A stretch of DNA of 64,000 nucleotides, taken from the NCBI GenBank assembly GCA_024743175.1, contig JANSXA010000001.1, positions 521,656 to 585,655 on the forward strand, in the 5' to 3' direction. This document shows positions 17,372-34,108 of this stretch, piece after piece; position 1 is the stretch's first letter, and the number at the start of each line of letters is the position of its first letter. The notes beneath the pieces were generated by a model. It was not told the DNA's origin. It worked only from the letters and a program-made list of their open reading frames with translations, and searched no databases. This DNA is from Pseudomonadaceae bacterium (GTDB lineage: Bacteria; Pseudomonadota; Gammaproteobacteria; Pseudomonadales; Azotimanducaceae). Made by a program: the position numbers and the translations under genes.

Positions 17372-17635
17372 ATGACCGCCAACATCCGCCCCGCTCTGCC
17401 GTCAGATAAAACCGTCTGCCTGGAACTCCTGGGTAAGCTGGTGGAGGCCACCGAAGGCGCCATCGACACACACGCTGGAGAAGTGTTTGACAGCTTGTTG
17501 GATGGATCACGAGGCCAGGTGCTGCTGGCCGAAGAATCGACCCGGGTACTTGGTCTCGCTGCGGTAAGTTTTAGCCTGGCCATGCGCTACGGTGGAGAAT
17601 ATTGCCAACTCGAAGAACTGGTGCAAACGCCCTGA
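17372..17635 (+). pseudogene. 5' part (84 codons up to the att core) of a GNAT acetyltransferase interrupted by the integrated element
   Basis: Strong AAGGAGG RBS, ATG 17372; ends ...YCQLEELV then QTP-stop in element sequence; joins in frame to 34109-34297. Confidence 0.9.
17603..17623 (+). repeat. Left att core TGCCAACTCGAAGAACTGGTG (21 bp)
   Basis: Exact copy at 34088-34108; flanking bases differ on both sides. Confidence 0.97.
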
Positions 17636-17683
17636 AACGCCCGTGCGATAGGCGTCTTGGAAGAATCTAAGCGATTACTAAGC

Positions 17684-17714
17684 AAAAAGCCCCGGTGACG
17701 AGCCGGGGCTTTTT
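17684..17714. terminator. Bidirectional intrinsic terminator AAAAAGCCCCGG-TGACGAG-CCGGGGCTTTTT closing the late operon
   Basis: 12-bp perfect stem with T-tracts on both strands, 87 bp after the last element gene. Confidence 0.9.
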
Positions 17715-17800
17715 AATTTCTAGGTGTAATTTTCCACGACGCCACTTTCTCGGCGTAGACGACACACGACAACGATAAACGCCATCAAGGTGCTGACATT

Positions 17801-18220
17801 TTAACTGATTGGGACGAGCACGTCTGCCTGATAGTTGGTCTCAGCCAAATATTCGAGCCAAGCGTCAGACTCACCAATGCGCCGCACTGACGTTGCTCTG
17901 AAGATCAGGCCATTGATAGTCGACATCTCCCAACAATCAGCCACACGGTCGCATAACTCTTGCGCCAAGCCGTCGCCCTGCCCCGCCGGTGTGAACACCT
18001 GCACGGACGCTGTACCTTGAATGCGCTTGCGTTTGCCTGCTATGGAAATGCCTATTTGCTGTGCAGCACCAGGCAGTACAGTGAGACGTACCCAGGGCAC
18101 GTTGTTGATCTGGGCAAGCTGGGTAGGCACGCCAGCGAAAACCACACGATACGTAGGCGAGAACGTCGCCCATTGATCGTTGAAGCGTGAGCGAATCTGT
18201 GAGGCAACAGCAGCGGTCAT
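17801..18220 (-). CDS. Phage tail terminator-like protein (DUF4128-like)
   Basis: PWVRLTVLPG...G...VQVFTPAGQGDG.A..L.D.VAD pattern; last gene after head closure. Confidence 0.7.
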   Translation of the reverse strand: MTAAVASQIRSRFNDQWATFSPTYRVVFAGVPTQLAQINNVPWVRLTVLPGAAQQIGISIAGKRKRIQGTASVQVFTPAGQGDGLAQELCDRVADCWEMSTINGLIFRATSVRRIGESDAWLEYLAETNYQADVLVPIS

Positions 18221-18576
18221 GAGACCAGCGTCACTTTATATGCAGCCATTTGGTCGCCGGAAACCACAAGCTGCGCATTCAGCACAGTGAAGGTCTTGCC
18301 GTCGAAAATGACCTCGTCATCGACAGCCGGTCGACTGGAAGTCTTTGCTGCAAGGTAGGTGAGCAGTTGCCCAGTCTGCACAACACCAGATAACCGGCTT
18401 TCATTGTACGGCTGTGGCGGTGAAATTTTGACGTGCTCTTCGGTCGTGGTGTTTGTGACCTTGCCGCTTGCAACATCATAAGCGCTGGTATGGCGTCGCA
18501 GGGTCGCAACCGTGCCGAACGTGTTGTCGATCAGCTTTTCGGCCAGGTCTCGAAATCGTACGTCGTATACTGTCAT
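18217..18576 (-). CDS. Phage head-closure (stopper) protein
   Basis: 119 aa; FG..ATLRR...YD..SG, P..DD.V..DGKTFTV pattern; position after the adaptor. Confidence 0.65.
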   Translation of the reverse strand: MTVYDVRFRDLAEKLIDNTFGTVATLRRHTSAYDVASGKVTNTTTEEHVKISPPQPYNESRLSGVVQTGQLLTYLAAKTSSRPAVDDEVIFDGKTFTVLNAQLVVSGDQMAAYKVTLVS

Positions 18577-18920
18577 GCGAGTTGATCCCAGTGAACATCG
18601 GTCGAGCCGTAGTCGAGTTCGTCCTTGTGGCTTCCCGAGAAAATTAAGTCATAGCGTGCCGGGCTTGCGTCGTCCCGGTTGCACTTCTCGGTCTCTGTTG
18701 GAATGTTGCCCTTGTGCACCCAATGCGTGTACAACGAGCAGGCCAGGCCCATTGAGCCGCAGCGGTGTGCGTTCCAGCATTTATCGCAGGGGCTTTCTTC
18801 AATGTACGGCTGTGCACTGGCACGGTTCCTGCGAGACTTCTCACGAACGAAGACGTTGTCTTCATAAGGCGCGAATTCCTGCTCGCCATAGGGCAGCTTA
18901 GCCACGTTCCCAAGTTCCAC
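18573..18920 (-). CDS. Hypothetical protein with Cys cluster (CxxC...C...C...H)
   Basis: PCDKCWNAHRCGSMGLACSLYTHW; overlaps both neighbours (23 nt and 4 nt). Confidence 0.55.
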   Translation of the reverse strand: MELGNVAKLPYGEQEFAPYEDNVFVREKSRRNRASAQPYIEESPCDKCWNAHRCGSMGLACSLYTHWVHKGNIPTETEKCNRDDASPARYDLIFSGSHKDELDYGSTDVHWDQLA

Positions 18921-19917
18921 GTTGAGAGGTGAGCAGAATCTCTACTTCCCGGGATGCATCAAAGAAAAACTTTTCGCGCTGGGCGTTGAAGTATTCGACT
19001 TCAAGCTCACCCAATTTCTCGCGCTTGGTGGAGCGGTCAAGCACACCCACAAGCTGCGACGCGGAAAGCCCGTCATCGGCGATAGCGGCACGCGCCAGGA
19101 AGATTTGTGCACGCTTCAAAGCCTCGGGAATCTCTGTCGTTGTGTAATAAACAAGGTTTTTGTTTTTGCTGCTCACACCAAGCGGCAACAGTGAGCCGTC
19201 AGGGAAATCGACATAGTCGCGAATCGCTGCCCATTCCCTCGGCCACTCCATGCACTGCCTGGGCTCTACCTTTGAGCCTATCCAGCGCATGCGGTACTTC
19301 TGTGACAGGTAATCCACTGCGTACAACAGCGCTGCATCCAGCACAGCGGTCGACACGCGCGGGCTTGCTGTGAATATTGAGTCGTTTCGGTTCTCCCAGA
19401 ACGTGCGCATCTCTTGCAGCGACACGTATGAGTTCGGGCATGGGCTGGCGTTTGAGTTGGTGCCGTCATTGACTACGATCACGTTGCTTACCTCCAAGTC
19501 TTCGATGGGTGACGGTAGCGGGCTTACAGGAGACCCTACCGGGCTAATTGGGCTCGGCCAGGGTGAGTAGTCCAGCGTTGGGGAAGCCAGCGGCGACACA
19601 GGAGACGGTAGCGGGCTGATTGGGCTCGGAGCAGGGCTCAGCGGCGACGGTGCCGGTGATATCGGACTCGGCATTGGCGATATACGCTGCGGGCTGGGCA
19701 GCGGGCTGATTGGCGATGCAACCGGGCTGATTGGTGAAGGTAGGGGCGAACTCCTTTGCGGACTGGGTCTGGGTGATCCAAGGGGCGAAGGCTGCGGGCT
19801 GATTGGCGAAGGTACGGGGCTCGTGTTGTACGGTGACGCAACCGGTGACGCAGGGGTTGCCCCGAACGCACCGATCTGCTCGTCGAAACCTGAACCATAT
19901 GCACCGATATTCGCCAT
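18898..19917 (-). CDS. Head-tail adaptor (so-called DnaT-like ssDNA-binding family) with an N-terminal Ser-Pro heptad stalk
   Basis: C-terminal NSYVSL.E...F, A.DYL, Q.MEWPR, IPE.LK.AQ..LA, KREKLGELEVEY motifs; about 30 SP dipeptides in residues 24-137. Confidence 0.8.
   Translation of the reverse strand: MANIGAYGSGFDEQIGAFGATPASPVASPYNTSPVPSPISPQPSPLGSPRPSPQRSSPLPSPISPVASPISPLPSPQRISPMPSPISPAPSPLSPAPSPISPLPSPVSPLASPTLDYSPWPSPISPVGSPVSPLPSPIEDLEVSNVIVVNDGTNSNASPCPNSYVSLQEMRTFWENRNDSIFTASPRVSTAVLDAALLYAVDYLSQKYRMRWIGSKVEPRQCMEWPREWAAIRDYVDFPDGSLLPLGVSSKNKNLVYYTTTEIPEALKRAQIFLARAAIADDGLSASQLVGVLDRSTKREKLGELEVEYFNAQREKFFFDASREVEILLTSQRGTWERG
19507..19848 (-). repeat. Protein-level SP-x-SP-x-P heptad repeat region (114 codons)
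   Basis: SPISPQP, SPISPVA, SPISPLP, SPISPAP, SPLSPAP, SPISPLP, SPVSPLA, SPISPVG, SPVSPLP; the DNA copies are diverged. Confidence 0.95.
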
Positions 19918-19920
19918 TGC

Positions 19921-21113: not shown

Positions 21114-21140
21114 AAAAAAGAAGGGGCTCCGAAGAGCCCC
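21114..21140 (-). terminator. Intrinsic terminator GGGGCTC-TTCG-GAGCCCC-TTCTTTTTT after the major capsid gene
   Basis: 7-bp GC stem, UUCG tetraloop and U-tract read directly. Confidence 0.9.
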
Positions 21141-21151: not shown

Positions 21152-22183
21152 TTAGAGAGACTGTATTGCTACAGCGCCCGTGTTTTTCAGTTGAAGCACA
21201 CGGTCCCAGTTGGTGCCTGTGCCGAGCACAGTGTCAGTCGGGTTAATGCCGCCGTTAGCGAGGTCATAGGAGTAACCCATCAAGCCAACATCGAATGCAC
21301 CAGTCGTGTTCTGGATAGAAAACTGAACGTTGTCATTCCCATGCACGGTCTGAAAATCAATATCGAAGGCTTCGCTTTCGGTAATGGTCACAGCGCCAGG
21401 CTTCAAGCCGAGCGTTACATACTCGCTCAATTCGCCGGGGCTGGAAGTGTTAACCAGTGCAGCGGAGTCGCTAACGATCACAGGAATGCCGAGCGTTTCG
21501 GGTCGGCCAGTCTGGACGTTGAAAGAACTCAAGCCGTCGATGTTTGCGGTGATCTGGGACTTAACCAAATCGAACCACACTTTCGAGTGCATCACCCAAC
21601 AAGCAACTTGTGACGCTTGGTCACCAAATTGTGCAAGCGTATCAACCAAGTCGTTAGACGTGATTGTGCGTTGCGGGGATACCGCGCCGCCGATGTCGAT
21701 GTTGAGAGAAGCCTGATTCATGGTTGCTGCAACCAAGGCAGTCAGCGCACGGTCGAGCTTGTAGATCGCTCGGTCTTTGGCGATCTCTTCAGCAAGCAGT
21801 GCAGTAACGTCTGCGGGCACGGTCCCAAAAGTTTTAGCCAGTGCGTCAAAGCTATCTTCGACATACAAAGACTCGTTCAACTTCACAGAGATGATTTCCG
21901 AGCGATTCAGCCGCGTAGGTGTGATCGGCTGGTTACCCGGTGAGGCAGAACCTACCTGTCGACGGGAAATTAAGCCGCCGTGATTGATAAACTGTGCAGA
22001 TGCCGCGTAGTCCCCGGGGTGAATGCTGCTGGTTAAAACCATCCCGCCGTTGCTTGCGGCGTTGAATGCGTTTGAAACCTGCGGGGTCAGTTCGGTGATT
22101 GCAGTTGATAAAAGGTCTGGGTACAGCAAGCCGGAAACCGACAAGTGACCAGTTGAACGAAAGTTTTGTGAGCCTGAACTCAT
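21152..22183 (-). CDS. Major capsid protein (siphovirus Gp13-like type)
   Basis: AFNAASNGG.VL...GD, AKFGD-like AQFGD, LGIPVIVSD and GL.GYSYD.ANGG.NPTD..L.TG.NWD motifs resemble this capsid family as recalled. Confidence 0.85.
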   Translation of the reverse strand: MSSGSQNFRSTGHLSVSGLLYPDLLSTAITELTPQVSNAFNAASNGGMVLTSSIHPGDYAASAQFINHGGLISRRQVGSASPGNQPITPTRLNRSEIISVKLNESLYVEDSFDALAKTFGTVPADVTALLAEEIAKDRAIYKLDRALTALVAATMNQASLNIDIGGAVSPQRTITSNDLVDTLAQFGDQASQVACWVMHSKVWFDLVKSQITANIDGLSSFNVQTGRPETLGIPVIVSDSAALVNTSSPGELSEYVTLGLKPGAVTITESEAFDIDFQTVHGNDNVQFSIQNTTGAFDVGLMGYSYDLANGGINPTDTVLGTGTNWDRVLQLKNTGAVAIQSL

Positions 22184-22297
22184 AACGTGATACTCCGTAT
22201 TTGAAAGTTAATTGCTAACCTTCCCGAGCATCGCGCCGTGCACAGGTCGACTGTGCGGAATGGGAAAGCCTGTATTTTCATACAGTGAGAAAAAATG

Positions 22298-23698
22298 TCA
22301 AGGGTTATTTTCCTCGTCGAAGACTGACTGCCCACCTGCGACCGGGTTTTCGATCTCAGCGAGCGACAGCTCTTCTATTACATCAAGGTCGTCGGGTAAT
22401 AAGTTCCGACGCTTGGCTTCGCGCAACAGTGATGCCCGGGTCAACGCACCAATAGCGTTCAATTCGAGCAAATCTCTCATTTCTGAATCGGCCAGGGCCA
22501 GGGACGCAAAATCTTCGAAAACGTCAACTTGCGCGTCGTCCTGGGGCAAAGCTGTGCCGAGCATGTCGCCAGCGATACGCAGTGCCGCTTCAAGTGCTTG
22601 TTTCAGTTCCCGGGATAACGGGCGCAGGTCGAGCGAGCTTTCGACGTCATCGAGCGCCCTTGCGGTTGCTGTGGCGTTACCCGGACGTCTACCCATTGTC
22701 AGATTCAGGGAGGATGTAGCAATGTGCTGCTCAAGCGCTTCCAGCTCAGTACGTCCAGCCCCTACCCCTTTACCGCTATGCTCGAGGAAAGCAAGCGTGT
22801 CGCCAGCATCCAGCACGGTTAATTGATTAGGTCCAGTCACAATCTGCTTGAACTCGCTTTCACTCTCGCCCGACTCAGTAGTGCGGGTTAGTGTTAATGC
22901 GGGTGCGCGGACTGCGTGCGTTATGTTCTGCTGCTCACTGTTGCTGACCCAGTGCTCAACGTTTAGATGAGCCAGGTCTTCAAGTAGCGGTCTACCACCC
23001 GCAAAGCCAACACCGCGGAACTGGGCACTCACTAAAGGCACGTAATCGAAACCGGTGTCGACATCTTCAATCAACTCAGGTTCGTCGCTGCCTTCCATCT
23101 CTTCATAGATGCGCAGCCGGTTCGGTTCATAAACCCAATACTGACATTTCTTTTTTGTCTCGAAATCGTCGCGCTCGGTCACGTCGAACTGAATCACGGC
23201 GAAGTTATAGACCTCAATGCCGTCGACAATCTGAGTATCCCAATCAAGCAGCTTGCTCGGGTGTATCAGCTTCCAGTAAGGAATTGCTGCCTGCTCGTCT
23301 GCAAGCGTCTCAGCTTCGATGCGCTCCCGGTCTACCAAGATATGCGCAACGCCATAATCGACACCTTGCGTGCACAGGTCACGTGAGAACGCTGCCAGGT
23401 CGTCGCCGGTTCCGGTGACATTGCCTGCAAACTCAATCATGCGGGCGGGGACTTTGTCAGTCGGTGCCGGGGCTCGGGTTAAGAGCTTACCGACAACACG
23501 GTCAGCAGCCTTGCTGTAGAAATTGGTCAGCGTCGCACGCCGTAGCCGCCGGGAATATCCTTCAGCAGATTCGTGCGGGTTTGGTGGTAGGTACTGCTCA
23601 GCGGCGGCACGCATAGCGACAGTGCCGCCGCGCAAGTCATCTGACATCTTCCATAAGGGGGCGAACATTTTGTTCTGCTGGTTCGGTTCAATTTTCAT
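22298..23698 (-). CDS. Phage portal protein (DUF4055 type)
   Basis: GG..AMR.AAE.YLP..P.ES...Y..RL.RA...N, PLLEDLAHLNVEHW..NS.Q.NI.H motifs; ATG 23698 one base after the upstream stop. Confidence 0.88.
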   Translation of the reverse strand: MKIEPNQQNKMFAPLWKMSDDLRGGTVAMRAAAEQYLPPNPHESAEGYSRRLRRATLTNFYSKAADRVVGKLLTRAPAPTDKVPARMIEFAGNVTGTGDDLAAFSRDLCTQGVDYGVAHILVDRERIEAETLADEQAAIPYWKLIHPSKLLDWDTQIVDGIEVYNFAVIQFDVTERDDFETKKKCQYWVYEPNRLRIYEEMEGSDEPELIEDVDTGFDYVPLVSAQFRGVGFAGGRPLLEDLAHLNVEHWVSNSEQQNITHAVRAPALTLTRTTESGESESEFKQIVTGPNQLTVLDAGDTLAFLEHSGKGVGAGRTELEALEQHIATSSLNLTMGRRPGNATATARALDDVESSLDLRPLSRELKQALEAALRIAGDMLGTALPQDDAQVDVFEDFASLALADSEMRDLLELNAIGALTRASLLREAKRRNLLPDDLDVIEELSLAEIENPVAGGQSVFDEENNP

Positions 23699-23699
23699 G

Positions 23700-24293
23700 C
23701 TATGCAGCCTCACTGATTATGCGAATCGCTTCGCGCATTGTTTTACCTTTCCCGATCAGCTCTTTAATTTTCGCTTGCCGTTCCTCGGGTGTTTGGGGTG
23801 CGGTATCGCGCACTTCGGGCTTGCTGGTTTTGCGCGGAGCACCACCACCACCGCCGGGAGACTTGGCATTGAATAACGTGCCGTGATCGCCCGCTTCTTT
23901 GATGCTGTTTAGAGCATCGACGAGGGACAGCGGATGCTCCGCGTCATCGCGTAGAATCTTGCCGTTATCACCTTTCAGCACGTACTCGCCGTCTTCTGTC
24001 TTGGTGATGCGGTCAGCGAAGAACGAACGTGCGTACCGGTTACCACCCGCCGCTTCGAGTGCATCGCGCAAGGCAATGTCTTGCTGTAGGCGAGAGACCT
24101 CTTCGGGCTTGGCTGTGTTCTTCAGCTCTTCACGCAAAGCTTTCACAGTCGAGTGCACCTTTTCCGCACGTTGCTCGCCATAATTGAAAGCCTCTTCATG
24201 AACGAAAAAGTCTTCATCCTTGGGCTGCACGTACTGGGCTTGTTCCTCTTCGGACAGCTCATTAAATTCGTCGGGGTTCAGTTTAATTTTCAC
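23700..24293 (-). CDS. Capsid scaffolding protein (putative)
   Basis: Acidic N-terminus, coiled coil, LF.....GGGG followed by a short C-terminal helix. Confidence 0.65.
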   Translation of the reverse strand: MKIKLNPDEFNELSEEEQAQYVQPKDEDFFVHEEAFNYGEQRAEKVHSTVKALREELKNTAKPEEVSRLQQDIALRDALEAAGGNRYARSFFADRITKTEDGEYVLKGDNGKILRDDAEHPLSLVDALNSIKEAGDHGTLFNAKSPGGGGGAPRKTSKPEVRDTAPQTPEERQAKIKELIGKGKTMREAIRIISEAA

Positions 24294-24861
24294 TTGGGAA
24301 GTTTCCTCTTTCCGTTTGCATAAGTTTCAGCAGCGACTCGTGTGCGCCAATTTGTTGATTGACACGGAAGGCGTTGTCTCGATCTTTGTAGGGGGTCAGC
24401 GTTTCTCGGTAAACGTTCAGCAGGTCGTCAGAAACGCCGGTAATCTCTCGGGGCGTGTGCAGCAAAGCCAGCCCGACGGATTTGTGCGCGTCTGGGTTTG
24501 CGAGCAAGTCCATCTTCCCCGCAGCGGAACTGATCAGGTCTCGGTAGCGTTGCAGCAGCTCACCGCGGTCGAAGTCGGAGATCGGCGGCAACTCTTCACG
24601 TTGCAGATGTTCAGAACTGCGCAGGTTACCGAGTCGTTTTTCAACCGCGGCAATGTCTTCGTCGAGCATAGAGCCAATCTCAATGCCTGCTTCATTAAGC
24701 TGTTTCGCAACGCCCTCTTCGGTAAGGTCGGCATCCTCGGTCAACACAGCGCGCAAGTCGCTGTGTACGTCTAACCGGGTCGTGAGCGTCTGGTACGCTG
24801 GGGTTAAGAATTCATCGTCTGCGAACATGTGCTCGTAAACGATTCGCTGTGCGTTTTTCAT
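24283..24861 (-). CDS. Hypothetical acidic helical protein in the head module
   Basis: 192-aa ORF overlapping both terL and the scaffold gene (translational coupling). Confidence 0.65.
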   Translation of the reverse strand: MKNAQRIVYEHMFADDEFLTPAYQTLTTRLDVHSDLRAVLTEDADLTEEGVAKQLNEAGIEIGSMLDEDIAAVEKRLGNLRSSEHLQREELPPISDFDRGELLQRYRDLISSAAGKMDLLANPDAHKSVGLALLHTPREITGVSDDLLNVYRETLTPYKDRDNAFRVNQQIGAHESLLKLMQTERGNFPSEN

Positions 24862-26258
24862 AAAGCAAATTCCCTTGATCGTCGTTTGACGGGTTTAAAG
24901 TTAACTAGGTAACGGATTCCATCTATCGAATGGTCCGGACCGACTAAATCTTCTCGTCGGGTCTTGTGGTGCTCGACAGTCAATGTCGTATCACGCGCAT
25001 AGTCGCAGTTGGCGGTGTAGTAAAGTGCAGCGCCAGTCGCTTCAGGATTGTTACAGTTGGCAAACCGCTGTCGCATCATTGCCCAGCCGTGCGCCCGGTC
25101 TTGTTTTTGTGACTTACGCAGACTGACGCCGTTAGCGCGAAGTATCGCGCCGGGGCTATCGACGCCCAGGTCGGCAAACGCTGCACTATCAAGCACGCCG
25201 TGTGGTTGTCCGGGTAGCCCCCAATGACGCCACATAGACGTAACATGCTCGGCCACTTTAGCGGCTGGCATTTGGGAGCCCTTGTCTAAATCTTCCGGTA
25301 CAGCGGTATGAAATTCGTCAAAGACCACACTGTCGTTTTCCTTGAAGAACTGGTCTTCATGCATCGTGGGCCGCGTGAAAGTCGCCACCAAAGAAAACGC
25401 AGCCGGTGACGCACTACCCCAGTCCGCACCAATTTCGATCTTTACGTTATTCGGTAATTTCGACCAAGGCTTCAGAACGCAGCGGTCTTCTTCGAACGAC
25501 GATCCAAAGAAAGCACCTACCCGAATATCCCACGCACCGAACTCAAAAGCGTCGGCAAGCTCCGGGTCATCTTTGCGAATCTGGGCAAGCGAAGCACGGT
25601 ACTGATCGTAAATAATAGGGTTGTCTTTCGGGGTAGACGGGTTAAACAACCAAAGCCGCTTGGTGTCTGGGTCGCGGTACTTGACCGGGGGCAAGTTGGG
25701 GAACTCTTTAACAAATCGAGAACGTACGGCGCTGTGACCGATGCCGCCCGGGTTTGCAGTAACAATAAGTCTAAGGGGCACGTGTGCGGGACCAGACAAC
25801 GACGTCGCGATGCGGTCGAACAAAGTAAGGTTCGGCCATTGCTGAATTTCCTCGCACCAGATTAGGGTAAAGCCCGCGCCTTGCACCTTTGTCCATGTAT
25901 CCGCCGTCTCGAACTGCTCCCAACGGACGACAGCGCCATTCTTGAAGCGCGTGCGGCGTTCCTGCTTGTTGTGGGTGAAGGCGTCGGGACCGAGCATCGT
26001 GCGCCAGGTGTCGAAACACTCTTCTTGTAGGGTTGCGATTTCAGACCAGTGACGCCGGTAGATAAGGACATGTGAATCTGGGCCGTAATCAGCGATGTGA
26101 TGACCAGTGATGCCTGCGGAGACCTTAGTTTTCCCGCCCCGGCGACCACCTCCGCTAAAGAGCCCTGTACCGAGACCCGTTTCGTCACGCTCTTCAAACG
26201 TGAGCGCCCGCGCCTGGGGCTCGTTCCATTCGATATGTCCGCGCGTTTCACTCGACAT
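24858..26258 (-). CDS. terL: Terminase large subunit
   Basis: Walker A GGGRRGGKT, Walker B LIWCEE, motif III VTANPGG, nuclease motifs IGADWG and DHSIDGIRY. Confidence 0.93.
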   Translation of the reverse strand: MSSETRGHIEWNEPQARALTFEERDETGLGTGLFSGGGRRGGKTKVSAGITGHHIADYGPDSHVLIYRRHWSEIATLQEECFDTWRTMLGPDAFTHNKQERRTRFKNGAVVRWEQFETADTWTKVQGAGFTLIWCEEIQQWPNLTLFDRIATSLSGPAHVPLRLIVTANPGGIGHSAVRSRFVKEFPNLPPVKYRDPDTKRLWLFNPSTPKDNPIIYDQYRASLAQIRKDDPELADAFEFGAWDIRVGAFFGSSFEEDRCVLKPWSKLPNNVKIEIGADWGSASPAAFSLVATFTRPTMHEDQFFKENDSVVFDEFHTAVPEDLDKGSQMPAAKVAEHVTSMWRHWGLPGQPHGVLDSAAFADLGVDSPGAILRANGVSLRKSQKQDRAHGWAMMRQRFANCNNPEATGAALYYTANCDYARDTTLTVEHHKTRREDLVGPDHSIDGIRYLVNFKPVKRRSREFAL

Positions 26259-26922
26259 CGGTGATGTCCTCGGCAGTCAGGTCGATGACCTTCTCGTCTG
26301 GGGCTTGGGGTTTGGCTATCTGGGGCAGATTGAACGTGTACTCGTGTTTGATGGTGGACTCGTTGCCCTTCTGCAAGATTTCCGGATCGAAAGCCTTAGC
26401 CACGAACTCGGCAGCGCGTGTGTCGCCTTCCATTGCCTTTGTGATCTGGGCAGTAGCAATCTGCTTGATGACGTCGCCGCGTCCGGCTTCAAGTGCCGCC
26501 GCTATGGGCGGGTGCTTCTTGACCCACTTATTGAGCGTAGTCAGTTCGATACCCAGCTCTCGGGCAATGTATTTCATTGAGGGTTGCGCCGCGGCCAGTA
26601 GGCGTAAGCGCTGAAGCCCGTCGGCAGTAAGGGTCTGCACCTCGTTTGCGGCTTTGGGGAGCCACCCGCGGGCCTCTGCTTCGGCACACGCCTCACCCAG
26701 CGCTGTTTGCACTGTGGGCGCGTATATTGCTTCGACTGCGAGCTTCACCCGCAAGGATTTCTTGCGCCATGTGCGCCACGTAGAGGCAGCGACACCAGTG
26801 TGCCGGGTGAGTTCTTGTATGTTGGTGACGTGTTTAGGTCGCTCCTTGATCATTTTAAGGAGCGCACTTTCAGTATGTGCGACGGGCATCGGTCTTATTA
26901 CGGCAGCATCGTGCTGGAACAA
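26248..26922 (-). CDS. Terminase small subunit-like protein with two HTH motifs
   Basis: IQELTRHTGVAASTWRTW and MKYIARELGIELTTLNKW HTHs, then A.EGD..AA.F; overlaps the terL start. Confidence 0.7.
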   Translation of the reverse strand: MFQHDAAVIRPMPVAHTESALLKMIKERPKHVTNIQELTRHTGVAASTWRTWRKKSLRVKLAVEAIYAPTVQTALGEACAEAEARGWLPKAANEVQTLTADGLQRLRLLAAAQPSMKYIARELGIELTTLNKWVKKHPPIAAALEAGRGDVIKQIATAQITKAMEGDTRAAEFVAKAFDPEILQKGNESTIKHEYTFNLPQIAKPQAPDEKVIDLTAEDITDVE

Positions 26923-27081
26923 AGAACTGTATAGATGTCCAGCAAAATAGGGAAGATACCTTGTTTTACAACGACTTACAGCGACTTACTGGGACAACTA
27001 AGGGTGTGCGGTATGCTGGCAAAGGCTGGTAGCACCCGGGATAATGATCCCCGTCACCAGCCAGCCAGCCGATGACAAACG

Positions 27082-27174
27082 AAAAGCCCCGAGAGGTTTC
27101 TCCTTGCCTCCCGGGGCTTTTTTGTGGGCGTATAGAAAGAAGCCCCGGCAAAACCCTCATTGAGCCGGGGCTTC
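27082..27174. terminator. Two tandem GC-rich hairpins (27082-27123 bidirectional terminator-like; 27139-27174) between the early and late operons
   Basis: AAAAGCCCCG...CGGGGCTTTT and GAAGCCCCGG...CCGGGGCTTC. Confidence 0.7.
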
Positions 27175-27479
27175 CCAGTGCTCTTGGCGGGGAGCACTGT
27201 GTTGTGGCGATGGAAAGTCCCACTACAGAAAACCATCACCGCGAAGCCATGATACCGAACGCCTGCACGGTGAACACAAAAGCCTATTCACTATTTCGTC
27301 TATTTCGTAAAACGAAAAATAATTTCGCCTGTATCAACCCCTTTTGCTTAGGCACTGCTTAGATTTATTCATAAACCCTATTGCAGCGGGCATTTCTACC
27401 AGTTCAATCGACTGGTGAGCGATGAATCGAGCCCACGGGGAGCGTGAGACAACCTAACCCGCTACTCCCCCCAAAGTAA

Positions 27480-27680
27480 GAAAAACCATAATTCCAGAAT
27501 TCCAGAGTAATTTAGGGGGTCTCTATATATATATGTGTAAATCAGGGGCAAAAGTAGGGTGAAAACAGTCAAAAAGAGAGAGTCTTAGTAAAATATAGAT
27601 ACATACATACATTACTCTGTAATAACTGTTTATCCCTACAAAAACCCTTGTAAATCAATAACTTATAATTCCAGAAGACT
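27480..27680. promoter_or_regulatory. Putative replication origin of the element
   Basis: AATTCCAG at 27490, 27498 and 27667; inverted CAGAGTAAT (27503)/ATTACTCTG (27611) around an AT-rich core with a (TA)n run; exact IHF consensus AATCAATAACTTA at 27653-27665; directly downstream of the primase-helicase. Confidence 0.6.
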
Positions 27681-27688
27681 TTTCGGGT

Positions 27689-30343
27689 TTATTCTGTACT
27701 TGTCTGGTTTATCCACTCCGGGTTGATCTCAAAACGGGGTGTTTTCTTCCCGCGCTTCGAAATTACAGAAGATTCCCGAATAATCCCGAAAGAATTCAGC
27801 GTCCGAAATATGGAATAAATGTCCTTATCCGTGTGCCCGGTATGTTTACCGAACACCTTCATAACGCTCGTCACGTCGCTCAACGTAAAGTAGCCTAGCT
27901 CTTCGTATCTTTTGCTCCTACCACAGCGTTTCAGCACCTCTGCTAGCTTCTTAGCGTCCTGAACCTGCACGACACGCAAGTCCAGCAGTGCCGACATGTG
28001 CTGCTGATACCGCTCCGCCATACGTATGCATGTCTCTACAGCACGCAGCGACACGGGCCTTGTTTGAAGCCACTCCCGCCCCTCGGAATCTGTTTTACGC
28101 TCAAGCTTGGATAACCCGGCAAGCTCGTCTGCGCCTTGGTTCAGCAGCGCGTGTACACCGCACAGCATGAGCACGTGTCGCCCGTTCTTAGCGTGTATGC
28201 CGCGCTGCACAGGGTCGAGTTCCCGATCCCTGGCTATGCGTTGCTGATCCCAGTTGTACCGCGCGAAGCGCCTGTCTGCTTCGTCGTCGAACGTCACGAC
28301 AAGGTCTCCGTCTAACTGCCGACACTGAAAGAGTACGGCGCGAAGAGCCTTATTCCACGCGCCCTCTGTTTCCTCAAGCCTTTTTTGCCAAAGCCGCTCT
28401 TCTTGATAGACCGCGTCGAAGTCGGTCTCGTCGATGTGTTGATTGTGCGTAAATCCGTCTGGGACGACGATATTCAAGAAACGGAAAATCCACCCATTCT
28501 CTAGGTCAGCACCTTCAATGGTCTTGCTGATACTTTCCGGGGTTGATACACCACCAACCGGGCAATACCCGCGGTCTGCGTTCATGTGAATAATGTCGTT
28601 CGGGTCGATGCCTGCACGAATCTTGCTGTAAGGGTCGTTTGACCATGCAGAAAGGTAGTATTCGGCGTCTGCACCTTTGCCATTTGCGCGATACTGCCCG
28701 AACTGCTTAACGAAGCTGGACATTTCGTCAGACATGTAGCCCATGCCGTTAGGGTTTTGCGATAGTTGCTTGATGCGAGCCTCAATGGTGGCGTCTTTGT
28801 CGTAGACGACTTCTCGTATAGGTCGCGGTCCGCGCTCTTCGGCCTCTTCGCCGCCCATCTGCCCAGCCTCCTCCCACTCACGCAGCCTCTTCTCGTGGGT
28901 GCGTTGTCGCTCCCTTTGGAACTCTACTATAGGCTTGGTCACGCGCCCCCATGAGCCGGTTTTCTGGAAGCCTGGGGGCATGATTATCTGCACCCACGGG
29001 CTCGGTGTTTGCTCAAAGTCGTGTAGTGCCTTGACGGTCGTGCGTGCGCCAGCGGCGAGACCGACGGCGAATATCATCATCGAGCAGACCGCTTCCACGG
29101 GCTGATTAGATAGATGCGCTATCGCTTCGCAGTACCGGTACTGATCAACCGACAGGAATTCCTTTGCTGGGAATGTCAGCGCCTCGACTTGCTCTTCGTC
29201 GTCAATGGTCAACGGATTGAAGGGCTCCGGGGGCTCCTGTCTGTGGGTATCGTCGGGACGTTCCCAGCCTTGTTCTTCAGCATGCTTGAATATTGAGTCA
29301 ACGCGGTAGCAAGGTCCGTTTTGCTGCTCGTAAAGGATCGTGCCTTCAACGCTTCGTGCGTCGTGCCATATCTCCTTGATCTTTTCGGTGCCGTCATACT
29401 TGCGCGCTTTGGTCTTGTGCAGACCACCAGCAGACCACTTGTCGGCCAGGTCAAACAGGGCTTGGGCGTGCTCTTCATGCTCACACGCATGTCGTGACAG
29501 CGCCATGATTGCCTTGCCCCAGGAGAACGGTGCCTTTGTGTCCCAGTAGGGTGCGTCTGGGTCACAGTGGGATAGCGCGGCGGTCAGTTCATCCATTGCA
29601 AGGGGCATGGGTTGCCATTCGTCACGTATGTACTCAGGCACGCGGGTGTGGTCGGTCTTGCCGTTGAACTTTGGTAGTTCTGTCGGCTTGGGCACGTGTG
29701 TAGACAGCGGCTCTGAGTGCGGCCAGTCAACCGCACCGAACTCGACAAGTTCATAGTCAGCGTCCAGCAAACCGCCTTCACCACCCCCGGGCACGGCGAC
29801 CGGCTGCGAGCATACGGGGTTTGGGAATATCTCTAACTCTTGATCGGCGACACCTTTCTGCCCTTCTTTAAAGTCTATTTCTTCGCATATGCCGCGCAAT
29901 GCCTTGCGGACGTGACCAAAGTACGTCGGCTGCTCCCATCTGGCATACAAGTGAATGCCTTTGCCGCCCTTCGACTTGAACGCAATGAGATGCACGCCAT
30001 GCTGCTTTGCAGTCGCGGTGATTTTTTTCGCTGCGTCTACCATTTGCGCCCAGGTTGTTGCGCCGTCGTGATCATCAAGATCGAACTGCGCAATCTGCAC
30101 CATCGGTTGCCAGTTTTCGGGTCTCTCCGCCCGGGGTTTCATGCGTATGATTTCGTCGCACAGGTAGAACGACACGGGTTTGCCTTTGCTCACCAGTTCG
30201 GTGAACAACCTGCTCTTAAGTAAGCCGGACTCGCAGGACTGCTTGCCGGGCTTGCCTTTGTTTTTGGTGCGGTGCAGGAACGTCGTGTCGGTGCCTACGT
30301 AGGGGTGAATGTACTGACTGAAAAAGTTGAGTCTGGGTGTCAT
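27689..30343 (-). CDS. Primase-helicase fusion (AEP-like primase + PriCT-2-like + DUF3987/YfjI-like ATPase)
   Basis: FDLDDHD and KSKGGKGIHLY primase motifs; L..ALSHCDPD..Y...W...IMAL; PPGFQKT P-loop; MSDEMSSF; NGWIFRF. Confidence 0.8.
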   Translation of the reverse strand: MTPRLNFFSQYIHPYVGTDTTFLHRTKNKGKPGKQSCESGLLKSRLFTELVSKGKPVSFYLCDEIIRMKPRAERPENWQPMVQIAQFDLDDHDGATTWAQMVDAAKKITATAKQHGVHLIAFKSKGGKGIHLYARWEQPTYFGHVRKALRGICEEIDFKEGQKGVADQELEIFPNPVCSQPVAVPGGGEGGLLDADYELVEFGAVDWPHSEPLSTHVPKPTELPKFNGKTDHTRVPEYIRDEWQPMPLAMDELTAALSHCDPDAPYWDTKAPFSWGKAIMALSRHACEHEEHAQALFDLADKWSAGGLHKTKARKYDGTEKIKEIWHDARSVEGTILYEQQNGPCYRVDSIFKHAEEQGWERPDDTHRQEPPEPFNPLTIDDEEQVEALTFPAKEFLSVDQYRYCEAIAHLSNQPVEAVCSMMIFAVGLAAGARTTVKALHDFEQTPSPWVQIIMPPGFQKTGSWGRVTKPIVEFQRERQRTHEKRLREWEEAGQMGGEEAEERGPRPIREVVYDKDATIEARIKQLSQNPNGMGYMSDEMSSFVKQFGQYRANGKGADAEYYLSAWSNDPYSKIRAGIDPNDIIHMNADRGYCPVGGVSTPESISKTIEGADLENGWIFRFLNIVVPDGFTHNQHIDETDFDAVYQEERLWQKRLEETEGAWNKALRAVLFQCRQLDGDLVVTFDDEADRRFARYNWDQQRIARDRELDPVQRGIHAKNGRHVLMLCGVHALLNQGADELAGLSKLERKTDSEGREWLQTRPVSLRAVETCIRMAERYQQHMSALLDLRVVQVQDAKKLAEVLKRCGRSKRYEELGYFTLSDVTSVMKVFGKHTGHTDKDIYSIFRTLNSFGIIRESSVISKRGKKTPRFEINPEWINQTSTE

Positions 30344-30464: not shown

Positions 30465-31478
30465 TTACTTGTTACTTATGTGATGCGGGTTGCTCTTGAT
30501 CGACTGCTCGCATAGGCGTTCGATGTGTTGCTGTCGCCTGTCCATGCAGTCGCTCGGTATCAGGTAGGCCAGACGTGACAGCCATTCCTCCTGCGTCAGC
30601 GGCTCCAACACAATCGCACGTCGCTCGAACGCCTCGCGGCGCACCGTCTCGTAATCGTAGAACTGCGCACGCATCTCGGCTTCGAATGTGAGCCACCGGT
30701 CGGCTCGCTCTAAGTGGTTGAGCGTGTCTATATCCTCGCCCTTGTTCCACAAATTTCCAGCGCAATTAGTGCCGAACACAAGCGGCTCTTCGTAACGCGA
30801 GCCCGGCACTGTGATCTCGAACCAGTAGCCCGGTATTGAATCCAGTTGGCTAATTTTTGAGACGTGCCCGGTTCGATTCTCGGGGTTATGGTCTACCAAT
30901 TCGTCAGCAAGTGGATTGATTGGTTTGTGCCGGTCTACCAACACATCCTCGGCAATGCCACGGGCGAAAAAATTTAGCTCGTGATTGATTCGGTCGAGAA
31001 TGAGTTGCTCGGGGTCGTCACTCGTAGGTCCGCGCTCTTTGCCTGGGTTTTCCATCCGCCGCAAGTGCTGCTTGAGTCGCAGCCCGAGTGCGTCGAGCTT
31101 GGCTTCCCACTCGGGCTGCGTCATGTCATCCAAAACGACGCCGCTTGCTTCGAAGAACTTTTGCTTCACGTGCGCGTAGTCGAGCATCTTGCCGCACGCT
31201 TGGTCCCAGTCGCGCAGCAGTTCGTTGAACTTGGCGTCGAAAGGCCCGTGTTCAGAGTTACGCAAGTCATCGACTAGCTGGTCTTCGTTGTAGTCGTGTT
31301 CGGGGTCGTTGGCTATGCATGCACGCATATGCCCCGCCACTTTGAGCGCGTAGTCTCTGTCTTCGTGGATAAGCGCAACTTCGTCGACGGCGAAACTCAC
31401 TTGGTCGCCGTTATCGGTAATCAAGTGAAAGCCGATCTCTGTGTCGTATCTGTTCATTGTAGTTATAGCGTTAGTCAT
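30465..31478 (-). CDS. Hypothetical protein with an internal two-fold repeat
   Basis: DYAHVKQKFFEASGVVLDDMTQPEWEAKL vs DYETVRREAFERRAIVLEPLTQEEWLSRL. Confidence 0.75.
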   Translation of the reverse strand: MTNAITTMNRYDTEIGFHLITDNGDQVSFAVDEVALIHEDRDYALKVAGHMRACIANDPEHDYNEDQLVDDLRNSEHGPFDAKFNELLRDWDQACGKMLDYAHVKQKFFEASGVVLDDMTQPEWEAKLDALGLRLKQHLRRMENPGKERGPTSDDPEQLILDRINHELNFFARGIAEDVLVDRHKPINPLADELVDHNPENRTGHVSKISQLDSIPGYWFEITVPGSRYEEPLVFGTNCAGNLWNKGEDIDTLNHLERADRWLTFEAEMRAQFYDYETVRREAFERRAIVLEPLTQEEWLSRLAYLIPSDCMDRRQQHIERLCEQSIKSNPHHISNK

Positions 31479-31785
31479 CTTGTTTTCCTTCTTTTCTATT
31501 AGGTAATTCTTTCACCCACCCAGGCACGCCGGGTAACGGTGATCCTGCGAGCTTTGCTTCGCGCCGTTCTGAATTGGTCATCTCTTTGATCCACTGCCTT
31601 GCTGTGTAGCCATTTCCATGCAGCCACGTCAGCGCCTCGTCTAAGTGAAAATTCCGCAGCAATGGCAGCGTTGCCCTGCTTAGTGCGTTCGGCCAGACCT
31701 TCATGTCTGGATCATTGAGCGATTGCTCGAACTCACCCGGCTGTGCAGGTTTGAAAATCTCGTCGAATTTATCTTTGTCAATCAT
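31471..31785 (-). CDS. Hypothetical protein
   Basis: 104-aa ORF with 8-nt overlaps to both neighbours. Confidence 0.65.
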   Translation of the reverse strand: MIDKDKFDEIFKPAQPGEFEQSLNDPDMKVWPNALSRATLPLLRNFHLDEALTWLHGNGYTARQWIKEMTNSERREAKLAGSPLPGVPGWVKELPNRKEGKQDD

Positions 31786-32074
31786 TTACGTATTCCTTTT
31801 CTGCTTCTTCTAACTTTTTGATTAAGGCACGGGCTATCTCAGCCGCTACGCCGTCTACAATTTTTATGCGTTGTGCTTCAGCTTCCCGGCGCAATTGCCG
31901 CTCGCGCTTGAGCGCACCCTTCAGCTTGTCGACCTCTTTGCCGGACGACCAACCTTCCAGCACAAGCGCTTCTAGTCGCATGACATCGTCGCCGAAATGT
32001 GTTGTATAGGGCTGATAGCCTGGGGGTTCAGGGTCCAGCTTTTCGAACTCGTCTAAGGGTATTTCTGGCTTCAT
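31778..32074 (-). CDS. Hypothetical coiled-coil protein
   Basis: 98-aa ORF in a coupled chain of overlapping ORFs; LKRERQLRREAEAQR coiled coil. Confidence 0.65.
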   Translation of the reverse strand: MKPEIPLDEFEKLDPEPPGYQPYTTHFGDDVMRLEALVLEGWSSGKEVDKLKGALKRERQLRREAEAQRIKIVDGVAAEIARALIKKLEEAEKEYVND

Positions 32075-32421
32075 GCGTCACCTGCCTTAAGCCGTTCGAC
32101 TTCTTCAGCACTGAGCATGAAGTAGTCAGGCATACCCAGCGGCACGACGGACTGACGAGCGGCTTCCGTGCCGTGCTGTTCAGCGATCAAGTCGTGATAG
32201 AACCGGGTCATTAAGGGGAGGATTACGAAGCTGCGCCCGCGATCACCTCGGGTGCCGGGCACCTTCAGAATACGATCTTTGTGCAGTTCGTTGAAGTAAG
32301 TGAGACTGGTGTTTTGCTCACCAGTTAAAGGCGACTGGTTCGCCTCTTTTACGGGTGCAAGAGGCACCCAGCCGTAATACAACGTTTCCATATTGCGCGT
32401 ACCAAACAGTCTCCCGCACAC
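32071..32421 (-). CDS. Hypothetical protein, first gene of the early operon (possible excisionase/regulator; alternative ATG 32391)
   Basis: ATGA overlap with the next ORF; function inferred from position only. Confidence 0.55.
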   Translation of the reverse strand: MCGRLFGTRNMETLYYGWVPLAPVKEANQSPLTGEQNTSLTYFNELHKDRILKVPGTRGDRGRSFVILPLMTRFYHDLIAEQHGTEAARQSVVPLGMPDYFMLSAEEVERLKAGDA

Positions 32422-32654
32422 CGCTCACAGGGGATTAATTGGTCTCAGTACGTGCTTTATGCTTTCCGGGTGGAGTGTCGCAATCGGTCGGATTTTAACC
32501 GCCGTGCCGCTTGAAGCGCCAGAAAGGCTCTCGCCTAGACTTTTCTAACCTCGGCGGCGTCCGTGCGGTATCCGTTGGGGGGTCGAATCGGAATTTCTAG
32601 AATCGACGTCGGCGCCAGCCAGGCCAGGTCAATGGAAATGCCAATGACCTGGCT

Positions 32655-32683
32655 ATCCTACGACGACGAATAGCGCTTTACAA
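32655..32683 (-). promoter_or_regulatory. Putative sigma70 early promoter TTGTAA-N17-TAGGAT followed by the hairpin GCCAGGTCATTGG-N5-CCATTGACCTGGC
   Basis: Read directly; the spacer is exactly 17 nt. Confidence 0.5.
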
Positions 32684-32729
32684 GAATTTTTTCTTTTAAG
32701 AACAGAAGGATACGGCGCAAAGCTCGACA

Positions 32730-32747
32730 ACTTGACATATGTCAAGT
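32730..32747. promoter_or_regulatory. Perfect 18-bp palindrome ACTTGACATATGTCAAGT overlapping the integrase stop codon
   Basis: Self-complementary by direct check. Confidence 0.7.
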
Positions 32748-33989
32748 CTGCTCGAAGAGTTTCGCTAAATGGTTGTTATATTTCTGCAATGCGTCCGCTC
32801 GCACATCTAGGTCAGGCGGCTTGCGACTGTAGTGCGCGGTGATGCTGCCCTTTTTCTTATGGTTTAGCAGCCAGGCAATAACAAGCTCGTTGTAACCCAG
32901 TTGATCATACAGCGTTGCGCCCATCGTGTGCCGCCATCGGTGCTGGGGATTGTGTCGATAGAAGTCCGGCAACGGCTCCTTGTGGTTCAACAGCGAAAGT
33001 GAGTAACGCACGTTCCTAGGCACCTCGGAACCTTGCAGCGCCACGCGAAAAACCTTGTCACTATCGCCAGCTACGCACTTCGCATCATCCAGAATGCAGC
33101 GCATTTGCGATGTAATAGGTAGCCGGTGCACCTTGCCGTTTTTGGTGGTTGCACTCGGCAGTACAACAGTATCGGATTCGACCATCGACCAAGTTAGTTT
33201 CGATGTTTCCGTACGTCTGCACCCAGTATATGCAAGCCACAACGTGAACAACCGGTCACCTTCGGGTAAGCCCTGCGGCCACCACCTGCATAGCGCATCG
33301 CCAAGCCACTTTAGCTGCTCGTCCGTGTATGGTTTTTCGTAGGGCGACAGTTCGTCCTCGTCCTCTTTTTCTGGCGGTAATAGTCTTTTTGTAAGAATGT
33401 GCGTTGGTGGTTGGTAGGTTTTGTCGTGCGACTCAACGTACCGCAGTATCGTTCGCAGGTATCGAAACGTATCTCGCGCCTGCTTGGGCGTGCCAATCAT
33501 GCCTTTCTGACCTTTAATCTCGCCGCGTTTGATTTGATTGAAACGTCTCTCAACATCCTTTGTTGAAATCTCCCGGTACGGACGTTCAAACCAGTCGCCG
33601 AGATAACGCTTTAGTTGGTCCGGCACTTGCCCTGCGGTCGCCGCCTTCAAATCGCGTGACTGCATCCAATCAAGCATGACTTGCCGTAGCGTTTGTCCGC
33701 CTCGCTTTTGCGTCCAAGGGTCTTTGTTGTCACCGAGTTCTGACAGCCAGCGAATAGCCACCTTGCGGGCAGACTTCACGTCGGGTTGCTTGATGACCTT
33801 GCGGAAGGTCGAGCCGTTCGCACGTCTACCAGACAGCACAAACGATTTCCGTCCGCTCTCGTGTAGTTCCAACCCAAAACCTGCCGGGTCTGTGAACCAT
33901 TGGAAATTCGACAGCTCCGGGTCGTACTTGGCGGCGTCGACATTTTTCTGTGTTGGCTTTACTCGTGCGCGCGTTTTAGGTGCCTTCAT
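32742..33989 (-). CDS. int: Tyrosine integrase with N-terminal arm-DNA-binding domain (ORF extends to 34028)
   Basis: Arm domain GFGLE...SGRKSFV; catalytic residues in YTGCRRTE (R), TKNGK (K), HRWRHT (HxxR), LLNH (H) and TAHY (Y). Confidence 0.93.
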   Translation of the reverse strand: MKAPKTRARVKPTQKNVDAAKYDPELSNFQWFTDPAGFGLELHESGRKSFVLSGRRANGSTFRKVIKQPDVKSARKVAIRWLSELGDNKDPWTQKRGGQTLRQVMLDWMQSRDLKAATAGQVPDQLKRYLGDWFERPYREISTKDVERRFNQIKRGEIKGQKGMIGTPKQARDTFRYLRTILRYVESHDKTYQPPTHILTKRLLPPEKEDEDELSPYEKPYTDEQLKWLGDALCRWWPQGLPEGDRLFTLWLAYTGCRRTETSKLTWSMVESDTVVLPSATTKNGKVHRLPITSQMRCILDDAKCVAGDSDKVFRVALQGSEVPRNVRYSLSLLNHKEPLPDFYRHNPQHRWRHTMGATLYDQLGYNELVIAWLLNHKKKGSITAHYSRKPPDLDVRADALQKYNNHLAKLFEQT

Positions 33990-34087
33990 CTTGCTTATTT
34001 CGTGCTTAGAATCTAAGCAAAATAGCACATTACAGGGTATTACAACACCAGCAGAAGGCGCTATAACACGGTACTACGTCACACGAG

Positions 34088-34108
34088 TGCCAACTCGAAG
34101 AACTGGTG
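34088..34108 (+). repeat. Right att core TGCCAACTCGAAGAACTGGTG
   Basis: Identical to 17603-17623. Confidence 0.97.

Follow-up and report, generated by a model that had tools for sequence, protein, structure and literature searches.

Is a phage-like element that carries head and neck genes, and no genes for a tail or for lysis, the remains of a prophage, or could it be a mobile element that builds capsids of its own? The question is raised by a 64,000-nucleotide stretch in the genome of a Pseudomonadaceae bacterium (4.72 Mb in 18 contigs). We refer to this whole stretch as the window (C7:521656-585655, contig JANSXA010000001.1 of assembly GCA_024743175.1). It contains an island of 16,485 bp, which a first-pass annotation had proposed as a candidate new type of capsid-forming satellite. 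Our analysis suggests that the element is probably an integrative, capsid-forming phage satellite that would depend on a helper phage for tails and lysis. This interpretation draws on its gene content, its precise and recent insertion, a recurrent and selected architecture of 16.0-16.5 kb, a private terminase, a shortened scaffold, and neck proteins that match those of tailed phages.

A discrete insertion with head and neck genes

The element is bounded by a perfect 21-bp direct repeat (TGCCAACTCGAAGAACTGGTG), which lies inside a plus-strand GNAT acetyltransferase gene with prfB on one side and recJ on the other. Contigs of other public sequencing runs were compared with the window over positions 16300-35800. 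In three runs (X3, "organism A", and X4 and X6, both algae metagenomes), position 17602 was joined directly to position 34088, skipping 16,485 bp, with 21 bases in common. The flanks in these sister strains were more than 99% identical to those in the window, with 1-3 letter differences per piece. Because the sister contigs join 17602 to 34088, the ends of the element are fixed by true empty sites, and not by the repeat alone. When the flanks are joined, an intact GNAT open reading frame (ORF) of 146 aa is re-formed. The 16,485-bp element is thus a discrete, recent insertion into the GNAT gene by its own tyrosine integrase, and its attachment (att) cores are intact, as the first-pass annotation had stated.

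The exact sequence of the element was found only in the runs of the source sample, so there is no second independent sighting of it. The source run is a phycosphere metagenome. RecJ and homoserine dehydrogenase of the host share 90%-identity clusters with proteins of a Pseudomonadales bacterium and with bacterial contigs within Symbiodinium assemblies.

The element comprises 17 intact ORFs, all on the minus strand, which cover 90% of its length. Gene families were assigned by Pfam and PHROGs searches (Table 1), and the single-strand order from the integrase to the tail terminator that had been read from the letters was recovered. Tail tube, tape measure, baseplate, holin and endolysin were matched by none of the 17 proteins in these searches, and the gaps left over are too small for tail or lysis genes, which agrees with the earlier reading. 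The searches also found no HNH domain in the 17 proteins and no prohead protease in the element, a scaffold of the phrog_206 family being present instead. The late operon is indeed closed by a bidirectional terminator next to att. The major capsid protein (MCP) scored 227 bits against PF20036 and 18.2 bits against PF05065, for which the cut-off is 24.2 bits. Only three weak, partial matches to the fusion of PrimPol and helicase were found among 50,697 phage records. The tail terminator is the sole phrog_179 match in the whole genome.

Two proteins encoded between the MCP and the head closure protein have particular features. The head-tail adaptor Ad1 carries an N-terminal Ser/Pro-repeat extension of about 140 aa (about 19507-19848) that is absent from the 199-aa adaptors of phages. 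For the beta-helix protein, the PHROG search gave a marginal match to tail fibres (E 0.0014); a tblastn search of the 50,697 phage records detected no homologue, and there was none among PDB sequences. The ORFs of these two proteins share a frame, with one TAA and one codon between them (19915-19926; ...LRA(stop)AMANIGAYG...). This arrangement could have arisen by chance or through a recent nonsense mutation, or it could reflect a read-through fusion.

Six ORFs (ORF116, ORF98, ORF104, ORF337, ORF192 and ORF115) had no credible Pfam, PHROG or PADLOC match at E<=1. The first four of them (30465..32421) are candidates for a module of regulation and excision. A single-sequence AF2 model of ORF192 contained helices only, with a pLDDT of 42.8, and was unusable for a fold search. 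An Rfam search of the element returned no RNA family.

Full-length and compact relatives of the head module

In a clustering of 5.8 billion proteins, the MCP forms a cluster by itself. Its next best matches have 48-51% identity, and identity to cultured phages reaches only about 31%. All traced MCPs of the ~50% class are encoded on contigs of full siphophages, which reach 72 kb and are in some cases incomplete. These relatives are uncultured siphophages on contigs of 55-72 kb (loci L006-L013, hereafter L006-type phages). Their gene order is terS(Terminase_2)-terL-portal(DUF4055)-small genes-MuF-scaffold(275-284 aa)-MCP-x-x-Ad1(199 aa)-Hc1-Neck1-terminator-tube(Phage_tube_2)-chaperone-tape measure. 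The element shares with them the portal clade, the order of the neck genes, and neck proteins that are 41-62% identical: the C-terminal adaptor domain has 44% identity to the full-phage adaptors, the head closure protein Hc1 41% to that of L006, and the tail terminator 62% to that of L006 and 48% to that of L008, while the portal has 31% identity to its full-phage counterparts. The terminator is therefore the most conserved structural protein of the element relative to this group. In L006, its gene directly precedes the tail-tube gene, and the element stops exactly at this boundary.

The differences go well beyond a missing tail. The L006-type phages are 3.5-4.5 times larger and possess tube, chaperone, tape measure and distal tail genes as well as MuF and Neck1 (Ne1), the latter a tail-completion gene between Hc1 and the terminator; MuF and Neck1 are both missing from the element. 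In the phages, TerL directly precedes the portal and is unrelated to that of the element: we detected no significant similarity between the element's TerL and those of the capsid-related full phages (best E 0.09). The scaffold is about 80 aa shorter than the 275-284-aa phage scaffolds and aligns to their C-terminal half alone; the full-phage scaffold spans positions 8-247 of the phrog_206 profile. Finally, the order terL-ORF192-scaffold-portal-MCP differs from that of the L006 type. Portal relatives were scanned in 60 genome, 80 IMG/VR and 80 metagenome loci (about 220, all at 36% identity or less). In every such locus on a long-enough contig, terL was directly followed by the portal gene, usually with MuF next, and the order of the element occurred in no full-length relative among them. 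Degenerate TerL scans of JGI metagenome contigs and IMG/VR returned no relative.

The first-pass annotation had read the clean end of the late operon as evolved rather than randomly deleted. The comparison supports such a view of the element: the relatives are full phages of 55-72 kb, yet they are not colinear with the element apart from one deletion. A full phage minus one deletion is ruled out by the lack of MuF and Neck1, the unrelated TerL, the shortened scaffold and the different order. The L006-type phages are likely the source lineage and a candidate helper type, and an element of another kind.

The compact order terL-x-scaffold-portal was found in three members: the element on contig C7, a second island on contig C1 of the same genome, and a relative in Logan run SRR22824269. 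The second island (G000:C1:87435-103450; loci L003, L004 and L242) is integrated in a tRNA gene and bounded by a 54-bp repeat of the tRNA 3' end (87435 and 103397), with a spacing of 15,962 bp. Its order is int - small ORFs - D5-type primase (853 aa) - 174 aa - TerL (470 aa) - ORF193 - scaffold (214 aa) - portal - MCP - three unknown ORFs - PycTM and PycC - DUF4238. The MCPs of the two islands share 49% identity, the portals 36%, and the TerL proteins 24.5% over 441 aa (E 2e-20); the integrase and the primase differ from those of the C7 element. At its distal end, the C1 island carries a complete Pycsar defence system (PycTM and PycC) and the DUF4238 protein. Tail genes, a beta-helix gene and recognisable adaptor, head-closure or terminator genes were not found in it, and its 256-, 159- and 75-aa ORFs had no credible Pfam, PHROG or PADLOC match at E<=1. 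Its TerL has no significant similarity to full-phage TerL. ORF193 (193 aa) is the positional counterpart of ORF192; neither these two proteins nor the two TerS candidates have pairwise similarity. An independent tail-less copy of the kind that the first-pass annotation had proposed to search for in genomes thus exists, in the form of this 16.0-kb tRNA-integrated island with another integrase and primase.

The C1 island is missing from the sister-strain runs. In the same runs, the region to its left (C1:85479-87425; O-antigen ligase/TPR protein) is likewise either lacking or divergent, which places the tRNA locus in a variable surface-polysaccharide region.

The relative from SRR22824269 is known over the stretch terS-terL-ORF194-scaffold-portal. 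Two overlapping contigs (L161 and L159) provide 4.4 kb of colinear sequence, whose DNA is 68% identical to that of the element. At the protein level, identities to the element are 61% for TerS and 78% for TerL (both L161), 61% for ORF194 of L161 against ORF192, 64-68% for the scaffold, and 76% for the portal (L159). Nei-Gojobori estimates of nonsynonymous differences (pN) between the two were 0.16-0.28, against saturated synonymous values (pS) of 0.63-0.80; for ORF192, pN was 0.25 and pS 0.74. Because pN is low relative to the saturated pS, the shared genes, including the lineage-specific ORF192, are under purifying selection.

Trees place the compact members close to one another. In the MCP tree, the C7 and C1 proteins are sisters (SH-aLRT 97) beside a 47-row clade that holds the traced full-phage MCPs. 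In the portal tree, C7 with L159, C1 and five L006-type phages form one clade (97).

A third island of the integrase-primase type was noted outside the window. It is about 11 kb long (G000:C7:163618-174761), is flanked by tRNA-end repeats (33 and 25 bp), and encodes a 356-aa integrase and a 793-aa primase that are weakly similar to their C1 counterparts. Capsid genes are absent; the island may represent a satellite resembling P4 or the phage-inducible chromosomal islands (PICIs), or a defence island.

Table 1. Features of the element and its insertion site, in window coordinates
Feature	Position	Strand	Basis or remark
Split GNAT acetyltransferase gene, 5' part	17372..17635	+	ends ...CQLEELVQTP and stop
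attL core, 21-bp direct repeat	17603..17623	.	exact breakpoint of empty-site contigs in X3, X4, X6
Bidirectional rho-independent terminator hairpin ending late operon	about 17684..17715	.	~60 bp from attL
Tail terminator	17801..18220	-	phrog_179, PF13554; last gene
Head closure Hc1	18217..18576	-	phrog_161
ORF115, Cys-rich	18573..18920	-	no family match
Head-tail adaptor Ad1	18898..19917	-	DnaT_2/phrog_477
Right-handed beta-helix protein, 389 aa	19921..21090	-	PF13229 8.5e-6
Hairpin terminator/attenuator 3' of MCP gene	21123..21140	-	
Major capsid protein (MCP)	21152..22183	-	Gp13-like PF20036 4e-67, phrog_247
Sigma70-like promoter with overlapping candidate SOS box (22270-22285)	22270..22301	-	TTGACA-16-GAAAAT and CTGTATGAAAATACAG; between portal and MCP genes
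Portal	22298..23713	-	DUF4055, phrog_145
Scaffolding protein, 197 aa	23700..24293	-	phrog_206 4.9e-10, profile positions 105-249 only
ORF192	24283..24861	-	no family match
Large terminase TerL	24858..26258	-	phrog_2 8e-20
Small terminase TerS	26248..26922	-	HTH; phrog_309
Intergenic control region, AT-rich with short repeats, candidate origin	26923..27688	-	read from sequence; GC 0.468 in that kilobase
PrimPol and DUF3987 helicase fusion, 884 aa (replicon)	27689..30343	-	DUF3987 7e-30, LigD_Prim-Pol 1e-7, phrog_2373 helicase
ORF337	30465-31478	-	no Pfam/PHROG/PADLOC match
ORF104	31471-31785	-	no Pfam/PHROG/PADLOC match
ORF98	31778-32074	-	no Pfam/PHROG/PADLOC match
ORF116	32071-32421	-	no Pfam/PHROG/PADLOC match
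Tyrosine integrase	32742..34028	-	Arm-DNA-bind_3, Phage_integrase (Pfam); phrog_1 (PHROGs)
attR core, 21-bp direct repeat	34088..34108	.	repeat copy and empty-site contigs
Split GNAT gene, 3' part	34088..34297	+	

Predicted signals, proposed life cycle and alternatives

The promoter between the portal and MCP genes is the best sigma70-like promoter of the element, and its -10 is overlapped by the SOS-box candidate. The motif CTGTAT-N4-ATACAG occurs at only five sites in the whole 4.7-Mb genome, CTGTATGAAAATACAG among them, and the host genes lexA (two boxes) and recA bear boxes of the CTGTAT type. Because of this rarity and of the boxes at lexA and recA, the promoter of the capsid and neck genes is predicted to be SOS-controlled, which we consider likely. 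The spacer between the primase gene and terS measures 767 bp and contains two hairpin terminators (about 27081-27172), which may close the early operon. Directly upstream of terS, a tandem GTAAGTCG repeat (26972-26989) is a candidate operator of the late promoter.

Other signals were noted in passing. A tandem direct repeat of ~10 bp stands just before the first late gene in both islands (GTAAGTCGCT/GTAAGTCGTT in C7, 26963-26990; GTACTACTTT twice in C1, 92730-92760); these repeats are candidate sites for a late-gene activator, possibly encoded by a helper. The perfect palindrome CTTGACATATGTCAAG (32730-32745), located at the 3' end of the integrase gene and the start of a 320-bp spacer before ORF116, is a putative operator. 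Outside the element, the longest ORF of prfB (16082-17102, 293 aa) does not include the N-terminal portion of the PCRF domain. Release factor 2 is made by programmed +1 frameshifting, which would give such an N-terminally short ORF and is ordinary.

For the element itself, the following life cycle can be proposed. An SOS signal, infection by a helper, or both, would lead to excision and to replication from the AT-rich region by the PrimPol-helicase. The late operon would be transcribed, with the additional LexA-box promoter serving the capsid and neck genes. Small heads would be built with the shortened scaffold, possibly together with ORF192; a T=4-like head is suggested by the genome size of 16.0-16.5 kb against 55-72 kb in the related phages. 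Because the terminase is unrelated to that of these phages, only the element's own DNA would be packaged. Heads closed by Ad1 and Hc1 would join the tails of an L006-type helper siphophage, with its SPP1-like head module and Phage_tube_2 tube, and lysis would be provided by the helper. The satellite terminator probably caps the tail tubes of the helper or replaces their cap, which would enable docking on satellite heads. The parts played by the terminator, ORF192 and the beta-helix protein, as well as self-specific packaging, tail theft and LexA control, are all predicted from the genes. A more elaborate version, to which we would give a small chance, has the terminator cap helper tubes and thereby divert tails, the beta-helix protein act on the Ser/Pro stalk of the adaptor (possibly as a read-through fusion) as a helper-independent device for adsorption or polysaccharide binding on chimeric particles, and LexA gate the capsid and neck genes. 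The capping role is suggested by the terminator being the satellite protein most like that of the helper and by the lack of the Neck1 gene that the helper has.

Several points weigh against a satellite and are gathered here. The genome was searched for a helper by tblastn with the tube, tape-measure, MuF and neck proteins of full phages and with about 1,800 ORFs of prophage loci, and for phrog_179; apart from the two islands, these searches revealed no tube, tape measure, MuF, Neck1 homologue or other prophage-like region. Beyond the genome itself, a related portal was present in 0 of 400 genomes of the host family (44 genera). Since no helper was found in the genome, the presumed helper is not resident, and it may be virulent or rare; dependence on one for the missing virion parts would follow from the gene content. 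The lineage is very rare, with three members, one of which (SRR22824269) is seen only as far as the portal. The MCP branch of the C7 element is long (0.94), so its grouping with C1 could be partly due to long-branch attraction, and the portal tree leaves the node of C7 and C1 without resolved internal order. Excision, particles and transfer are predictions of the satellite reading, and the small capsid size is deduced solely from genome size and scaffold length. With Neck1 absent, head-tail joining may need a protein of the helper. A regulator of the AlpA, Stl or repressor type was not detected in the element (Pfam/PHROG, E<=1).

The end of the element, exactly where the tail-tube gene of the related phages would start, and the failure to find a helper in the genome or the host family would suit a defective prophage, that is, a siphophage of about 50 kb that entered the GNAT gene, lost its tail and lysis region together with other genes, and is now a non-functional remnant. 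The clade that the head and neck genes share with full siphophages of 55-72 kb is also in line with such an origin. Nevertheless, we consider a remnant unlikely. The empty site in sisters of more than 99% identity leaves little time for several deletions and rearrangements, and at least four differences beyond one deletion would have to be explained (no MuF, no Ne1, another TerL, a reordered and shortened scaffold). Decay would also hardly leave intact att cores and integrase, 17 of 17 ORFs open, a coding density of 90% and a clean bidirectional terminator after the last gene. Moreover, an island of the same size and order with other integration and replication modules exists on C1, and the compact order is under purifying selection in another sample.

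Still less probable, in our estimation, is a minimal particle that needs no helper, in which adaptor, Hc1 and terminator form a stub, the beta-helix protein is a receptor-binding appendage (on the Ser/Pro tether or by TAA read-through), and release awaits unrelated lysis of the host. No proteins for DNA ejection, no needle or nozzle, no MuF and no lysis genes are found that such a particle could use, and its terminator is 62% identical to a protein that caps a long tail tube in related phages. That a beta-helix protein with a marginal tail-fibre match is encoded between MCP and adaptor, and that the adaptor has a 140-aa Ser/Pro extension not seen in the 199-aa phage adaptors, fits an appendage, as the lack of a detected helper fits independence; however, the C1 paralogue has no beta-helix or recognisable neck genes, and the frame that beta-helix and adaptor share across one TAA is expected by chance in one case out of three. 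A domesticated cassette that serves the host, resembling a gene transfer agent (GTA) or related to defence and not self-mobilising, appears very improbable. Head genes without a tail and the Pycsar system of the paralogous island would be compatible with this idea. In contrast, the element is strain-specific and missing in near-identical strains, brings an integrase, att sites and a replicon of its own, and does not occur in the 400 host-family genomes, and its own TerS implies specific rather than random packaging. A GTA-like cassette and a plasmid-like element were both rejected, as the island is strain-specific, att-bounded and integrase-bearing.

Comparison with known satellites

Staphylococcal pathogenicity islands (SaPIs, e.g. 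SaPI1 and SaPIbov1) and other classical PICIs are likewise islands with integrase and primase, and their capsids are small, matching an island size of about 15 kb. The SaPI morphogenesis operon is under LexA control, analogous to the SOS box before the MCP gene. Unlike the element, SaPIs lack a capsid, a portal and a TerL of their own and instead remodel the capsid proteins of the helper (CpmAB, Ccm). Capsid-encoding, helper-dependent elements outside the enterobacterial capsid-forming PICIs (cf-PICIs) include the cf-PISP of Vibrio crassostreae (PMC13230959) and the Streptomyces satellites MiniFlayer and MulchMansion (PMC10690885). The former differs from our element in being episomal and phylogenetically a cf-PICI, with PF05065 capsid, protease and HNH; the latter have no replication genes and belong to unrelated lineages.

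The closest parallel is with the cf-PICIs. These are islands of 10-18 kb of three independent origins, which make their own capsids and steal helper tails. They encode int, a regulator, pri-rep, terS, terL, HNH, portal, protease, a PF05065 capsid, adaptor and connector, and no tails or holins; adaptor and connector determine tail specificity, and tail-less capsids can take up free tails (10.1101/2022.09.08.507074; PMC10085698; 10.1101/2025.02.11.637232). We compared the element with the SatelliteFinder definition (PMC10085698) and the methods of 10.1101/2025.02.11.637232. As in the prototypes EcCIEDL933 and KpCIDSM30104, the element is integrative, in the range of about 15-18 kb (16,485 bp between att cores) and co-oriented, with an integrase of the tyrosine type and its own TerS and TerL (phrog_309 and phrog_2). 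Its primase-type replicon is a PrimPol-DUF3987 fusion, which would be a functional equivalent of the cf-PICI primase-replicase. Portal (phrog_145), Ad1 (phrog_477) and Hc1 (phrog_161) are functional equivalents, from other sequence families, of the cf-PICI portal, adaptor and connector. Tail and lysis genes are absent, apart from the tail terminator, which SatelliteFinder may count as a "forbidden" tail component. The structural genes are distant from phage genes (below 50%) and form a branch of their own, and defence cargo is possible at the distal end, as in the C1 paralogue. As would be expected of phage satellites in general, the architecture is distinct and recurrent in three members and is under purifying selection.

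Unlike cf-PICIs, the element has a scaffold in place of HNH and protease, a PF20036 capsid, a DUF4055 portal and a DnaT_2/Ad1 adaptor. Its order is terS-terL-ORF192-scaffold-portal-MCP-neck, and the tail terminator, the beta-helix protein and the Ser/Pro stalk of its adaptor are additions. The element sits within a protein-coding gene, which it disrupts, and its host is an alga-associated marine member of the Pseudomonadales. The regulator (AlpA, MerR or Stl) that stands next to int in cf-PICIs was not recognised: the four ORFs between int and primase had no Pfam or PHROG match at E<=1 and may hide a novel regulator. Membership in the cf-PICIs was rejected, since HNH, protease, capsid family and regulator all fail to correspond. 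The first-pass claim that the module differs from the HK97-type one of cf-PICIs largely stands, with no HNH or protease and other portal, capsid and adaptor families; it needs correction for the Gp13-like MCP, which still has the HK97 fold and differs at the level of the family.

The capsid-forming satellites known to date belong to lineages of one module type, with PF05065 capsid, protease and HNH-cos terminase. If our interpretation is true, the same head-only, tail-stealing lifestyle has also been reached by miniaturising an SPP1-like head module that depends on a scaffold and has no protease. This would strengthen the case that evolution arrives at this lifestyle repeatedly. Whole lineages may also escape profile-based tools such as SatelliteFinder. 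In a marine host associated with algae or dinoflagellates, such elements could carry defence systems, like the Pycsar system of C1, between strains. The tail terminator gene hints at a mechanism of tail capture; none such is described in the cf-PICI papers searched, and the term "tail terminator" is absent from the text of the cf-PICI preprints searched. Two 16-kb islands in one genome, together with relatives of 55-72 kb, offer a natural system for relating scaffold length to capsid size.

The independent origin that had been suggested for the element is plausible, because the cf-PICI papers already report three. Taken together, the element appears to add one more independent lineage to the capsid-forming satellites. 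This lineage is rare in the data now available, its morphogenetic module is distinct, and it may possess a new device for tail capture. In our best reading, it would work like a cf-PICI, on a scaffold-dependent, SPP1-like head module without protease or HNH.

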